A stretch of 64,000 bases of DNA, taken from the IMG/VR virus record IMGVR_UViG_3300042294_003246; one strand, written 5' to 3'. The translations under genes and the position numbers were made by a program. The notes under the pieces are model-generated. The model saw only the letters and a program-made list of their open reading frames with translations. It searched no databases and had not been told where the DNA came from. Source of the DNA: a virus (taxonomy: Duplodnaviria > Caudoviricetes). Shown in pieces: positions 26,520 to 46,966 of this stretch (its first letter is position 1; the number at the start of each line of letters is the position of its first letter).

Positions 26520-26614
26520 AATACAAATATAGTGAAAATCTTTCAAATAATAACATAAACATCATAAACTTTCATTGGCCCAAACCTAATTATTTTTTTG
26601 TCGTATTTATGTGT

Positions 26615-27670
26615 ATGAAACTAATATCTTTTATAGTATCTATATTTCTATTTTTCATTAGTTTATCACAAACTCAAACCGTAACTTTTAATTATACAGG
26701 TGCTGTTCAAACATGGGTTGTTCCACCTTGTGTTACTTCTATCAATGTAGTCGCCGCAGGAGCAAAAGGTGGAGGTGCTATTGGAGGAAACGGAGCAAGA
26801 ATAACCGCAACAATAGCCGTAACACCAGGTCAAACTCTGAATATATATGTTGGTGGAATGGGGACATGTGGAAATAATTCAGGAGGATGGAATGGTGGAG
26901 GAACAGGATATGCTTCTAACCCTGCGAATGTAACATATAATTCTTGTGGTGGTGGAGGTGCAACTGATATTAGAATTGGAGGAACCGCACTTGCAAATAG
27001 AGTAATTGTTGCAGGAGCGGGTGGTGGTAAAGGTGGAGGATCAAACACAAATACACCTGGTGGTGGAGCCTTATGTAATAACGGAGCAAACGGAGGAAAT
27101 ACCTTTGGTGCTGGCGGTGGAGGAGGAACACAAGTTGCAGGAGGAAATGGTGGTGCTCCTTGGGCAGGAACACCTCCTGGTGGTCAAGCAGGAACATTAG
27201 GTCAAGGTGGAAATGGTGGATTTTGGCAAACGGCATCAGGTGGCGGTGGCGGTGGCGGTCGTTATGGCGGTGGCGGTGGAGGAAATGATGGATGTTGCAC
27301 TGGTGCTAACGGTGGAGGTGGTGGCGGTGGAGGATCTTCACTTGTCCCTGTTGGAGGAACTTGTTTACCCACAAACAACACAGGACACGGATATTTAACA
27401 ATCACTTACACACCCGTTAATTTGGTGGTTAACCCAACCTCAACAAATGTCACATGTTTTGGATTATGTGATGGAACCGCAAACTCAAATGTAACAACAC
27501 CAGGGGCCACTTTTCTTTGGTCACCGGGAGGACAAACAACCCCTTCAATATCAAATCTTTGTCCTGGCACATATACCGTAACGGTAAATATAAGTGGTTG
27601 CACAGCAACAGGATCTGTAACTATAACCCAACCTAATCAAATATTGTTAGGTCCAATAAACCATAATTAA
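26615..27670 (+). CDS. secreted glycine-rich-domain protein with SprB-like repeat
   Basis: Signal peptide ending SLS-Q; TFNYTGAVQTW..GGGATDIR..VAGAGGG; TNVTCFGLCDG; ends LGPINHN; TATTTATG at 26604. Confidence 0.8.
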   Translation: MKLISFIVSIFLFFISLSQTQTVTFNYTGAVQTWVVPPCVTSINVVAAGAKGGGAIGGNGARITATIAVTPGQTLNIYVGGMGTCGNNSGGWNGGGTGYASNPANVTYNSCGGGGATDIRIGGTALANRVIVAGAGGGKGGGSNTNTPGGGALCNNGANGGNTFGAGGGGGTQVAGGNGGAPWAGTPPGGQAGTLGQGGNGGFWQTASGGGGGGGRYGGGGGGNDGCCTGANGGGGGGGGSSLVPVGGTCLPTNNTGHGYLTITYTPVNLVVNPTSTNVTCFGLCDGTANSNVTTPGATFLWSPGGQTTPSISNLCPGTYTVTVNISGCTATGSVTITQPNQILLGPINHN

Positions 27671-42479: not shown

Positions 42480-42503
42480 TAATATAATTCATTCACTCAC
42501 TAC

Positions 42504-42535
42504 AAAAGGGAGACTCCATACGGGTCTCCTTTTTT
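42504..42535 (+). terminator. intrinsic terminator
   Basis: GGAGAC-9 nt-GTCTCC plus T6. Confidence 0.8.
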
Positions 42536-42580
42536 CATTCATTCATGTATTATATTATTACATTTCTATATAGGATATGT

Positions 42581-43158
42581 CCCACTAATTACCACATATA
42601 TTAAACAGTAATGTAATCCCCCCACTAAATGAAAGACCCCCATTTATAAGTGACACAATTAAAGAAGACGTTATGGTGATCAGTTTATTGGTGATTTCAC
42701 AAATGGGGAACAAAGTTCCCCCACTTATTACCACCAACTTTAGTAGATCAAAGAGTAATCCTAGATGAGGTGTTCACTACAGATTAATGTTCAGTGGCAC
42801 TCCACTGGCGTGTCGGTCTACGATGCTGAACACAGGGAAATAATGAACAGTTAAGTAGATTATTTACAAGTCTAAATAATGTGTCTATTATTAGGGGGTC
42901 GAATGTTAAGTTGGATCTAAGTAAAACACTAAAGTGGTCGTTGAAGTTATATATAATATACCATTCTAACGTCCTAAAGGACTGTCCACGCTTCTTGTTC
43001 TTTAACTATACTTTTTTAGCTGGAAAATATAAGTAGTTAAAAAAGTGGTCCTGTAGGGGTCAAGAGAGGGGATTTTTTCACTCTCAGTATAGCAACAGGA
43101 CCAATAATGGTGGTAGAAAGTGGTAATGAATTGTGGGAGTTTGTGGTATAAAAGTGGG
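42581..43158. ncRNA. candidate large structured RNA or origin-like element
   Basis: No ORF of 60 aa or more; at least 8 hairpins or nested inverted repeats. Confidence 0.4.
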
Positions 43159-43294
43159 TGAGGGGATTGTGTTGTGAAGCGAGCAAGACTGACTTTTTGT
43201 CATTTCCAAATTTTTTAACATAAAGTTATTAACAAAAATCCCCTCTGTTGATAACTTAATGAGTATTTATAATATAAAATATTATTAAAAAGTT

Positions 43295-43915
43295 ATGGAT
43301 AAAATATGCACCATATGTGAGTTAAATAAAAATATTGACGAATTTCTCAAGTGTGATCCTTGTAAAGATGGTTATAGAAATCAATGTAAAGATTGTATCA
43401 AAAATAGGAACATTAAATGGAGAGAGGAAAACCCCGAATACCATAGAGATTGGGTCTCAAACAATAAGGAGAAAGACACACTCAGAAAAAAAATTCATTA
43501 TGAATTAAATAGGGAAAAATACATACAAAATAGTAATGACTATAGAAAGAATAATAAAGATAGAGTAAATAAGGTTGTGTCTGATTACAGGAAAAAAAGA
43601 TTCACTGAGGATGAGGTTTTTAAATTAACATTTACTGTGCGAAGTAGAATACGTAATTTTTTAAAATTATCGGGGGGGATTAAAAAAGACACAACATTTG
43701 ATTTAATTGGGTGTTCCCCAACAGAATTAGTAAAACATATTGAGGATAAGTTTACAGATGGGATGACATGGGATAATCATGGTGAATGGCATATCGATCA
43801 TATAATACCTTTATCTTCCGCTAAAAATTACGATGAACTTAAAAAACTATCACACTACACTAATCTACAACCATTATGGGCTAAAGATAATTTAACTAAG
43901 AGTAATAAACTATGA
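43295..43915 (+). CDS. HNH endonuclease
   Basis: CTIC..CKDC; GMTWDNHGEWHIDHIIPLS..HYTNLQPLWAKDN; TATTTATA at 43264-71. Confidence 0.88.
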   Translation: MDKICTICELNKNIDEFLKCDPCKDGYRNQCKDCIKNRNIKWREENPEYHRDWVSNNKEKDTLRKKIHYELNREKYIQNSNDYRKNNKDRVNKVVSDYRKKRFTEDEVFKLTFTVRSRIRNFLKLSGGIKKDTTFDLIGCSPTELVKHIEDKFTDGMTWDNHGEWHIDHIIPLSSAKNYDELKKLSHYTNLQPLWAKDNLTKSNKL

Positions 43916-44220
43916 TACAACTAATAGACAAATTCGAAACAACTGTAAGTGAAAATAATGGTTCCATAATGGTCAATTATAGATATGACACTCTGTCACT
44001 CGACTCAGAGTCTCGGTCTGTGACGGGAACTTGTGAATATAGAATAATTGAGGTCAATAACAGGTTTCAACAAAAAGCATGGTTACTTATCAACACAGAC
44101 ATGGCAGACGTTATTGAATTCATTCATTCCAATTCCCCATTAAGTGATGACGATTTAATGACGGTTAATAAACTTATAAGAGATCACTCACTTCTTAGGG
44201 TTCAAGATCTTCATCGGTAA
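43912..44220 (+). CDS. hypothetical protein
   Basis: ATGA overlap with the HNH stop. Confidence 0.55.
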   Translation: MIQLIDKFETTVSENNGSIMVNYRYDTLSLDSESRSVTGTCEYRIIEVNNRFQQKAWLLINTDMADVIEFIHSNSPLSDDDLMTVNKLIRDHSLLRVQDLHR

Positions 44221-44359
44221 CAATATGTTTTTTCAACCATAGCGAAACCTTTGAGTTGGGGAACTTGGAAACCATAACAATGGAAAAGATCATTCCAATA
44301 AAAAGGGGGACAAAAAAGATGGAGACAACAATCCCCAAGTAATATAGAATATCAATCAT
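44195..44359 (-). CDS. small membrane protein (54 aa, not in track)
   Basis: MIDILYYLGIVVSIFFVPLFIGMIFSIVMVSK...; TATTTATA on minus strand 5 nt upstream. Confidence 0.55.
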   Translation of the reverse strand: MIDILYYLGIVVSIFFVPLFIGMIFSIVMVSKFPNSKVSLWLKKHIVTDEDLEP

Positions 44360-44501
44360 AATAATATAAATATACGAATATTATTTCACACCATCAAATT
44401 AAATATTGGGGGATCAATAATAATATATTAGTGCAGATTGGAGTCTACACTCCAAGAGGTGTTTCTCCCCCAGCCCGAATATGTGATCATCACCTTCAAT
44501 A

Positions 44502-44533
44502 CAAAGATAGAAATTTATTTTGACATAAACAAA
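44502..44533 (-). promoter_or_regulatory. Bacteroidota promoter with no substantial ORF downstream
   Basis: TTTG-N20-TATCTTTG. Confidence 0.7.
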
Positions 44534-44564
44534 TAAACCATTGATCTTTTTTAAAAGAATAATA

Positions 44565-44728
44565 TATTTATAATAAGAATCTTATTTTCCCCACAGTTGG
44601 GAATTAGTTAATCAATGATCCAAGTGACATGTAAAGATTAAGATGAGGTTTAAAACAAATAAGACATACGAACTTCTAACGAGGGGTTCTTTAATCTAAT
44701 CTCTTTCTAATAGGTGGGGAATTTTTTT
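44565..44728 (+). ncRNA. candidate late small RNA
   Basis: TATTTATA 44565-72; TTCCCCAC/GTGGGGAA closing stem plus T7; inner AGATTAAGA/TCTTAATCT stem. Confidence 0.35.
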
Positions 44729-44827
44729 ATGCTTGTATGTTTCTAAACTATAAGGCAGGATGGAGTCTACTCGGTCCCCCTCGTTAATGAAGGTTACAAT
44801 ACTCAACTGACGTATCGGTCTATGACA

Positions 44828-44859
44828 CAAAGGTAGTGAAAAAAAATGAGATGATCAAA
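44828..44859 (-). promoter_or_regulatory. Bacteroidota promoter with no ORF downstream
   Basis: TTTG-N20-TACCTTTG. Confidence 0.7.
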
Positions 44860-45087
44860 TAACGGATCACTTAATTGTCAATTAAAGTTATTAACAAACC
44901 ACTCCCTCCCTTCTTCTTTGGCATGGGCCCCTACCTTATTATATACCCCCTCCCCCCTACCGTATTCCCCCCATAAGTGACATTCTGTCAGGGGAAAGGG
45001 GGGTTCAATCCCCTCTATAAAGTATTCGTAAAAAAATTTCTGGAAAAAAATTGATATTTTTCCCTATGTCTTATTAAGGGTGGAGGT

Positions 45088-45145
45088 TTTCTAAAACACG
45101 ACCCCCCTTTTTGAAAAAAGGTCATATATACTAAAAAAAATTTTT
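45088..45145 (+). repeat. C6/A-tract element, copy 1
   Basis: TTTCTAAAACA(C/A)GACCCCCCTTTTT 24/25 identical to 46898-46922, then A8-10T4-5. Confidence 0.8.
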
Positions 45146-45202
45146 AGAATTTTATGGGAAAAATTGACCCCTATTTATGTTATATCTATATATTTAAGTT
45201 AT

Positions 45203-45826
45203 ATGGAAAATAGAAAATGTGTTGATTGTAAAGAGTCTAAACTTAAATGTGATTTCTATGTTAAGAATATAAAGTCGGGGACATTACAGAGTTATTGTAA
45301 AATGTGTTCAAACATACGAAGAAGAAAAAGAGATAAAATATTTAGATCTAAAAACCTACATAAAAGAACACCAAATAAAATAGAGTGTTTAACGACTTGT
45401 AGTTGTTGTGGTGAAAGAAAAATTACAACTGAAAACTTCCGTATTCAAACAAACGGGATTAATTATGAAAAGGTTTGTAAGTCCTGTAAAAATGTTAAAA
45501 GAAAAGAAAGAATGGATAATGACCCAATCTTTAAATTCAAAATTCGTCTTAGAAAAACAATAAAGGAATCCGTAAAAAGAAGGGGTTATACAAAAAAATC
45601 AAAAACCTATGATATATTGGGAATTGATTTTATGGGTTTCAGAGCTCACATTGAGAATTTATTCTTGGAGGGGATGACTTGGGATAATCACGGGGAATGG
45701 CACTATGATCACATTATTCCATTGTCAACTGCCACCACTTATGAGGAGGTCATTAAATTAAATCATTATACTAACTTCCAACCCCTATGGGCTGAAGATA
45801 ATCTAAAGAAAGGATCTAAATTTTAA
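45203..45826 (+). CDS. HNH endonuclease, paralog of 43295
   Basis: CVDC, CKMC, CSCC, CKSC; GMTWDNHGEWHYDHIIPLS..HYTNFQPLWAEDN. Confidence 0.88.
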   Translation: MENRKCVDCKESKLKCDFYVKNIKSGTLQSYCKMCSNIRRRKRDKIFRSKNLHKRTPNKIECLTTCSCCGERKITTENFRIQTNGINYEKVCKSCKNVKRKERMDNDPIFKFKIRLRKTIKESVKRRGYTKKSKTYDILGIDFMGFRAHIENLFLEGMTWDNHGEWHYDHIIPLSTATTYEEVIKLNHYTNFQPLWAEDNLKKGSKF

Positions 45827-46484: not shown

Positions 46485-46904
46485 ATGAAAATCATTATAA
46501 CTGAAGATCAATACGGACAATTAACTAACCTCGTTAAACGAGTGATTCGTGAAAATGACTCTATGTTAGAAAAAAACAAAAAGTTTTTAAAAAACAAGTT
46601 GGGTATTGATTTTACAAATGTCATTCAACAAATAACCTCAACTTATGATATTCCAATGGAATTTGCTGGATATATTTCACCTGGATTGATTAATCGTTAT
46701 TTAAACAAATATGGACCTATGTATCTTTTTGAACTTGACGGGAAAAAATATCTTTATTTAGATGTGGGGGATCATGAGAAGTTTATTGATGAGAATGGAA
46801 ATATATATATTGAAAATGAAATACCCGAACAACTTGGAATCGCAATAATGGGTTTAAGATTCTCAGATATTATTGATCTGTATTTTAAAGAAGAGGATTT
46901 CTAA
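46485..46904 (+). CDS. leader family protein
   Basis: MKIIITEDQYGQLTNLVKRVIREN. Confidence 0.75.
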   Translation: MKIIITEDQYGQLTNLVKRVIRENDSMLEKNKKFLKNKLGIDFTNVIQQITSTYDIPMEFAGYISPGLINRYLNKYGPMYLFELDGKKYLYLDVGDHEKFIDENGNIYIENEIPEQLGIAIMGLRFSDIIDLYFKEEDF

Positions 46905-46966
46905 AACAAGACCCCCCTTTTTAAAAAGAACTGAAATCTTAAAAAAAAAATTTTGAAAAAATTTCC
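46898..46966 (+). repeat. C6/A-tract element, copy 2
   Basis: 1810 bp downstream of copy 1. Confidence 0.8.

Follow-up and report, generated by a model that had tools for sequence, protein, structure and literature searches.

Bacteriophages are known to place leader RNAs before small genes, as in the pL-nutL-N region of lambda, the CI RNA of P4, the c4 RNA of P1, and the leader of T4 gene 32; the P4 CI and P1 c4 RNAs are processed from their leaders. Origins that employ R-loops or iterons have been described as well, among them ori(uvsY) and ori(34) of T4, the RNA II system of ColE1, the mitochondrial CSBs, and the iterons of P4 ori and crr. A third kind of element found between phage genes is the free-standing homing endonuclease, exemplified by the mob and seg genes of T4, for which the signature of "intronless homing" is an insertion polymorphism accompanied by a diverged flank. 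The locus we describe here recalls all three. Our comparisons support its conserved part as an unclassified functional noncoding element, which we place, as a new member, among phage noncoding regulatory elements.

The locus lies in a window of 64,000 nucleotides (64 kb), the whole stretch of DNA that was analyzed, with about 30% G+C and almost all of its genes on the plus strand. One of the proteins encoded there (816 aa) carries SprB, PKD, and CHU_C domains of type IX secretion, and its only relatives in the phage database belong to two uncultured "huge phages" (634 and 642 kb; 50% and 39% identity, respectively). Because of these relatives, and because the exact window sequence recurs in lake-water metagenomes collected from 2016 to 2024, we take the window to derive from a large freshwater phage that has not been cultured. 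The host probably belongs to the Bacteroidota, as judged solely from the secretion-signal domain. Elsewhere in the window, positions 26609-27670 have a G+C content of 0.43, against roughly 0.30 for the window, and the gene there encodes a protein of 353 aa in which Pfam recognizes an ALK/LTK glycine-rich domain (E 4e-9).

Between a 171-aa gene, which has no relatives among viral contigs, and an HNH gene at 43295-43915 is an 815-nt stretch (42480-43294) whose longest ORF is at most 51 aa. The original prediction of an ORF-free element at this place is borne out, and every inverted repeat that it listed is present in the sequence. These include 42721-36 with 43108-23 (16 nt, 88%), the 12-bp stem formed by 43010-21 and 43035-46, and TGGTCCTGT (43046-54) with ACAGGACCA (43095-103). 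A terminator-like hairpin and T run (GGGAGACTCC..GGGTCTCC TTTTTT; 42508-42535, plus strand), as read from the sequence, would end the upstream gene; its counterpart occupies the equivalent position in locus L001. When homologs are compared, the stretch is seen to consist of two parts, a conserved noncoding core on the right and a lineage-specific mosaic on the left.

Two loci whose noncoding DNA resembles that of the window were reached first, by way of IMG/VR relatives of the HNH protein. A search pattern composed of two invariant blocks gave 11 viral and 92 metagenomic stretches, and a profile of the core matched 70 metagenomic loci with nhmmer; made non-redundant at a 98.5% threshold, the set comprises 42 homologs with a mean identity of 67%. 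What is held in common is a noncoding unit of about 380 nt (42861-43243, plus strand), within which the core itself, presumably a transcribed leader or ncRNA, spans 42895-43182 as defined by the nhmmer loci and by alignments A3, A5, and A6. It occurs once per window or contig, and its invariant blocks are GGTCGTTGAAG, CTAACG, GCTGG, and AAAAAAGTGGTCCT. A blastn search of GenBank phages with the region gave no match. A pattern scan of the 185,579 prokaryote genomes of GTDB returned 26 matches, which we attribute to chance since none of them fits the core HMM. The Rfam search that accompanied the original prediction as a check has now been made, and it found no family at gathering score in the window and nothing relevant between 42000 and 46000 at E values up to 10. 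No tRNA or tmRNA was found, and a full-text literature search turned up no description of the element. The phage clade throughout which the core is found reappears in lake metagenomes over the same 2016 to 2024 period.

The constant neighbor of the core is a gene for an acidic protein of about 91-104 aa, here called ORF102 (43912-44220, plus strand). More than 50 homologous loci have the core and ORF102 side by side and lack the HNH gene; in such loci, with the whole ORF aligned by tblastn, the gap is 2-34 nt (mostly 2-7 nt) and both lie on the same strand. Wherever enough sequence is available, tblastn finds ORF102 (91-104 aa) downstream, except in L124, L162, and L166, which are among the most divergent core matches. 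The genes beyond ORF102 vary from locus to locus. At the nucleotide level the core is better conserved than the gene it precedes, with mean identities of 70% and 61%, respectively, and a higher value for the core in 133 of 153 pairs. Noncoding DNA that outconserves its own protein gene must act in a sequence-specific manner.

ORF102 belongs to a family of 1525 clusters, all of them hypothetical, and identity among the proteins encoded by our homologs falls to 24-40%. The protein matches no Pfam or PHROG family. Its AlphaFold (AF2) model, with a pLDDT of 86, has four strands and two helices; fold searches against the PDB, AFDB clusters, and the full VIA set yielded nothing significant (best Z 5.2, within the noise range), and a search of the Atlas returned only unnamed viral clusters. 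By our count the net charge is about -6, and because the protein is this acidic it is unlikely to bind nucleic acid.

Conservation among the homologs begins at a promoter. This promoter, P_core (TTTACA, 17 nt, TATTAT; 42863-42891, plus strand), is the best sigma-70-type match between 41800 and 45400, scoring 10 of 12, and the pattern TTTAC[AT]-N16/17-TAnnnT is kept in all 42 homologs (with TTGATT in one). Its geometry also resembles the Bacteroidetes arrangement TTTG-N19-21-TAnnTTTG, with two or three mismatches; the strict form (TTTG-N18-22-TAnnTTTG) is absent from both strands of the ORF-free region, which we call region A. A transcript would start in the G run at about 42895-42899. A second promoter-like box lies just 5' of the ORF102 start codon in most homologs, reading TTGACA-N18-TATTTA or TATATT in 32 of 42; the window's own version, TTGTCA-N18-TAAAGT, brings the count to 33. 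In the window it falls in a tract (43183-43252, plus strand) that replaces the usual box with a diverged version, beside the HNH insertion discussed below.

Some RNA evidence, though weak, is available from a relative. The sequencing runs that contain the exact window sequence include no RNA run; four runs with small shares of it were compared with the window. In a fish-gut metatranscriptome, contigs from a relative, which are unstranded, lack defined ends, and may include DNA carry-over, cover 42975-43084 at a depth of 62 and join 43063-43182 directly to 43911-43972, with no HNH gene, at a depth of 25; ORF102 itself is covered about 4-fold, and nothing else is covered between 41000 and 46500. 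This uneven depth fits an abundant RNA, and the core is probably transcribed. We infer that the transcript is of the plus strand, starts in the G run near 42895, and continues into ORF102.

The original prediction had described the region as densely base paired, and the single sequence does fold better than its shuffles (z of -3.4 for the plus strand and -5.5 for the minus strand); in 15 homologs the z-scores are about -3, with both strands alike. The nested fold itself is not conserved. RNAalifold applied to the 42 homologs finds 23 pairs over about 400 nt (-11 kcal/mol), and when pairing probabilities are taken for each homolog by itself, just two helices come up repeatedly. Two longer-range pairings were considered and rejected. 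A closing helix between the 5' G run and the C run before the ATG fails to covary in three of the four informative homologs. A helix between the left CCAC motif and the right GTGG motif is thermodynamically favored in most homologs; the spacers of the two copies do not covary, and the left copy precedes the conserved promoter.

What the homologs do share is a small number of short stems on the plus strand. Hairpin a (42927-36) and hairpin b (42971-74 with 42979-82) both have UAAA loops. The arms of hairpin a change across lineages, pairing CAC with GTG, CCC with GGG, or GATCC with GGATC; these compensatory changes were judged by eye, and the only formally counted ones are those of hairpin b, in which TCC/GGA switches to ACA/TGT, with no hybrid alleles, across three ORF102 clades. 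When 3' partners were exchanged between sequences in 500 trials, the scores were 0/500 for hairpin b, 6/500 for stem S (43010-46), and 24/500 for helix H1 (43046-54 with 43095-103); hairpins c and e were not significant in this partner-swap test. Stem S and H1 are two further stems with weak support, and in one clade the 3' strand of H1 changes without compensation. The only variation in hairpin e (43064-68 with 43081-85) is that of G-C with G-U, a pattern that favors an RNA of the plus strand. With 57 sequences placed on covariance model R1, 95% of cells pair over the whole structure; shuffled data give 89.8% (0/500), and sliding the partners lowers the figure to 44-68%. Of the 31 cells in which both sides change, 29 come from hairpin b, a single 3-bp hairpin with two alleles, and recombination could carry both of its arms together. 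The covariation check proposed at the outset returns a few short helices and no dense nested fold. The core consists of a few short helices set between long invariant stretches, and it is not a densely paired large RNA. The suggestion of an unclassified large RNA holds for an unclassified functional noncoding element and fails for large size and dense pairing.

With about even confidence, we suspect that the core is transcribed from its promoter into a plus-strand noncoding RNA, either a leader or an ncRNA belonging to the ORF102 unit, and that the motifs and hairpins of this RNA serve as recognition sites. The promoter at 42863-91 would drive a noncoding transcript of about 300 nt, which would pass through a G-rich tract and the second promoter-like box and then enter ORF102. 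The product, either a long sequence-constrained 5' leader or a processed ncRNA, would belong to the ORF102 unit and would contain a few short hairpins (two with UAAA loops) and no global fold. The AAGUGG motif, the GUGG-N6-GUGG repeats, and the invariant unpaired blocks would be recognized by a protein or by a further RNA, and this partner might control ORF102 expression or the fate of the RNA itself. We infer the transcription, strand, binding, and regulatory role of the core in this proposal. ORF102, being acidic, is unlikely to be the binding protein. No boxA or boxB motif was found in the core, and no complementary target sites were found.

The repeats of the locus can also be read at the level of DNA. 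In the 64-kb window GTGG-N6-GTGG occurs only at 43110 and 43133, and its complement, CCAC-N6-CCAC, occurs at 42582 and 42721 and at one unrelated site. In nearly all homologs one or two copies fall at core positions ~240-300, and an inverted copy precedes the promoter by 7-280 nt. An RNA that begins at 42895 would not include the CCAC-N6-CCAC copies, and the conserved inverted layout would then call for a DNA-level explanation. Four copies of AAGTGG, all in a single orientation, fall within 220 nt, whereas the window as a whole has 0.5 per kb. Tandem units of 11 nt of the TAAGTGATCTA type occupy 42945-66 (plus strand; columns 125-165 of alignment A5); among relatives there are one to four copies of T(A/T)(A/T)GT(G/T)ATCTA, the unit sequence being homogenized within each genome.

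The left part of the stretch (about 320 nt, 42540-42860) is rich in hairpins, varies with lineage, and cannot be aligned across homologs. It contains C runs, the two CCAC-N6-CCAC copies, a GGGGAAC/GTTCCCC hairpin, and nested TGTTCA hairpins that surround the module CACTCCACTGGCGTGTCGGTCTACGATGC (42798-42826). Modules of this segment shift their place between relatives and are found in either orientation: CCCACTAATTACCAC (within 42557-42617) is flipped inside an ATATGT/ACATAT stem in L082, and the module of about 30 nt, CACTCCACTG..GTGTCGGTCTACGA (42798-42826), is inverted in L086 and L001. Inversions of hairpin loops are known from chloroplast spacers, and the module flips seen here show a similar pattern.

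A DNA-level regulatory region, in which the GTGG-N6-GTGG sequences are operators for a phage or host regulator, possibly with looping, is in our estimation rather unlikely. The half-sites would stand one helical turn apart, the sites would occur in opposite orientation upstream of both promoters, the 11-nt tandem units would form a second binding array, and the whole would function in duplex DNA and not in RNA. Such a role is in keeping with a motif that is nearly unique to the locus in 64 kb and whose arrangement, a single inverted copy upstream with one or two downstream, persists in nearly all homologs. The left copy adjoins the -35 box in several homologs, and in L082 it flips inside a hairpin yet stays present; the 11-nt units, variable in number and homogenized within genomes, are also what a binding array might show. 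Operators do not, however, account for hairpins a and b, whose two arms change together as a protein site would not require, nor for the long invariant blocks between the motifs. There is also no linked DNA-binding gene, because the neighbors vary and ORF102 is acidic and without a DNA-binding fold match.

Downstream of ORF102 is region B (44221-45163). Its minus strand carries two of the nine strict Bacteroidetes-type promoters of the window (TTTG-N18-22-TAnnTTTG), one at 44859-44828 and the other at 44533-44502. They are followed on the same strand by terminator-like hairpins at 44451-44430 and 44337-44320. The minus-strand promoters recur at the corresponding place in most relatives, and the downstream sequence ..GTCGGGCTGGGGGAG..GGAGTGTAGACTCC.. 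is conserved; the units they head are probably small RNA genes. These candidates have no Rfam match. Pairing between them and the core was assessed with RNAduplex and gave no consistent signal above shuffles. The homolog that diverges most, L166, has a tRNA-like sequence (..GGTTCGAATCCTGTCCTGACTACA) about 1.2 kb past its core, behind a minus-strand promoter, in the place that relatives give to the region-B small RNAs. Region A and region B share TCGGTCTA, of which there are two copies only in the 64 kb: one at 42813, in region A, and one at 44815, where a minus-strand promoter of region B has its start site. The loops GGUCUAC of region A (plus strand) and AUAGACC/GUAGAC of the region-B minus-strand RNAs are complementary. 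This complementarity could allow a kissing-loop contact, or the two could simply be paralogous modules.

Region B enters a further proposal, which we consider improbable: the core as a new class of abundant phage RNA, about 300 nt long, that acts beyond its own operon, for example as a decoy, in anti-defense, or as a replication primer, and that forms one conserved module with ORF102 and the promoter-driven minus-strand small RNAs of region B. The GUAGAC-type loops of those RNAs complement the GGUCUAC loop of a module in the left part of region A.

Replication is also the basis of a rather improbable explanation in which the locus is an origin, with a transcript through the G-rich tract leaving a persistent R-loop primer beside an AT-rich unwinding segment and with the GTGG repeats as iterons. 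The composition is suggestive. Some 215 nt past the promoter is a G-rich, C-poor tract (43105-43170, plus strand) that carries the GTGG-N6-GTGG repeats (G 38%, C 4%), followed by a segment of 86% AT that the repeat arrays, both GTGG-N6-GTGG and 11-nt units, adjoin. The repeats are inverted in the manner of iterons, the 11-nt units vary in number, and the element is present in one copy per window or contig. Against an origin, cumulative GC skew runs monotonically across the window without inflection, genes point in the same direction on both sides, no linked initiator, helicase, or primase gene was found, and the strict coupling to the start of ORF102, at a distance of 2-4 nt, would be unexpected. 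The original prediction had offered an origin with inverted iterons as its second possibility; of this, the inverted GTGG layout proved to be conserved, and neither a skew signal nor a recognizable initiator gene was seen.

The HNH gene was the other focus of that prediction, and its history at the locus can be read from relatives. The encoded protein (206 aa, 43295-43915, plus strand) matches PHROG phrog_1035, "endonuclease VII" (E 1e-22), and gives a weak Pfam HNH match (18.9 bits, E 0.0018, below the 21.4 cut-off); it has 119 relatives in viral contigs. A domain search found no RuvC or other IscB domain, in agreement with the view that this HNH protein is not IscB-like. An HNH gene at the core site is confined to the window and the L001 group and is absent from more than 50 loci. 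The closest relative without it, L177, lacks a 659-nt insert that lies in the window exactly between ..CCCTCT and the ORF102 ATG; the junction in HNH-less loci of the L177 type reads TTATTAACAATTCCCTCTTATG. The L001 group carries an HNH insert of about 660 nt at the identical site. The inserted cassette (43253-43911, plus strand) comprises the gene and its own AT-rich upstream region. Window and L177 are 94% identical over the 655 nt upstream, 91% in ORF102, and 97% at the start of region B; in the 55-59 nt beside the insertion (within 43183-43252), identity is 63%. This diverged 43183-43252 tract is probably a co-conversion or target-immunity tract.

From this combination of a one-site insertion polymorphism and a diverged flank, we identify the HNH gene as a probable free-standing homing endonuclease whose insertion separated the leader from the start codon of ORF102. 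As an insertion it is not the partner of the element. A second HNH/endonuclease VII-like paralog (phrog_1035, E 4e-20) lies 1.9 kb away at 45164-45826 and, like the first, is preceded by a similar AAAGTTATTAACAAA motif, in its case at 44883; because relatives carry other genes after region B, this one too has probably been inserted. A 62-nt stretch is repeated with 81% identity at 45083-45144 and 46893-46954, about 1.8 kb apart, in the A/T-tract region that precedes the second HNH gene.

These observations bear on the proposal with which the study of this DNA began, that an RNA of about 700 nt, densely paired, might work with the adjacent HNH protein as HEARO/omega RNA does with IscB. The element is indeed directly upstream of an HNH gene in the window, long-range inverted repeats exist, and the single sequence folds better than shuffles. 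The adjacency is incidental, however, being absent in more than 50 loci: HNH is missing in all but two lineages, while core and ORF102 stay joined. The left arm of the supposed RNA is unconserved, the consensus fold amounts to 23 pairs, no HEARO (RF02033) or other Rfam match appears at E values up to 10, and the protein has 206 aa where an IscB-type protein, with split RuvC plus HNH, has about 400-500. We consider the partnership extremely unlikely; it is contradicted by the distribution and effectively excluded. As the case illustrates, a nuclease gene found next to such an element can have arrived recently as a selfish insertion and be no functional partner at all. Least credible is a decayed or recoded protein-coding sequence (a pseudogene or another genetic code), since although individual homologs show stop-free runs of 35-105 codons, close relatives differ in which frames are open, the core homologs have no conserved reading frame and no period-3 pattern in their variation, and all three stop codons are so frequent in all six frames (15-26 per frame across 42480-43294) that neither code 4 nor TAG=Q, nor code 11, opens any frame, with the result that a hidden gene is effectively excluded.

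The element in its preferred form, a promoter, an RNA of about 300 nt, and a small acidic protein, offers a defined candidate for regulation, anti-defense, or replication priming in uncultured large phages. Compared with large structured RNAs, it has in common with HEARO/omega, GOLLD, ROOL, and OLE a length of several hundred nucleotides, carriage by phage, and conservation exceeding that of its neighbors. RNAs of the GOLLD, ROOL, and OLE type show many covarying helices, whereas the core shows few short ones, and the covariance models of GOLLD, ROOL, OLE, and HEARO do not match it. The HNH insertion resembles the mob and seg genes of T4 in that a small HNH/endonuclease VII-like ORF sits between two genes, varies in its presence, and has a diverged flank. 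The T4 genes lie between or inside conserved enzyme genes; that of the window, in contrast, lies at a junction of promoter and start codon past a noncoding element. With T4 ori(uvsY) and ori(34), ColE1, and P4 ori the core shares the succession of a promoter, a non-template strand rich in G, and an AT-rich segment, together with direct and inverted repeats; unlike them, it has no linked initiator gene and is tied to the start codon of a small gene.

Known phage leaders differ from the core in several respects, since it extends for about 300 nt and contains long invariant unpaired blocks and repeated GUGG motifs, and lambda N is basic and disordered whereas ORF102 is acidic and folded. In its order of parts, the core is nevertheless like them: a promoter is followed by an untranslated RNA with short hairpins, whose stems covary while their loops remain constant, and then by a gene for a protein of about 100 aa.
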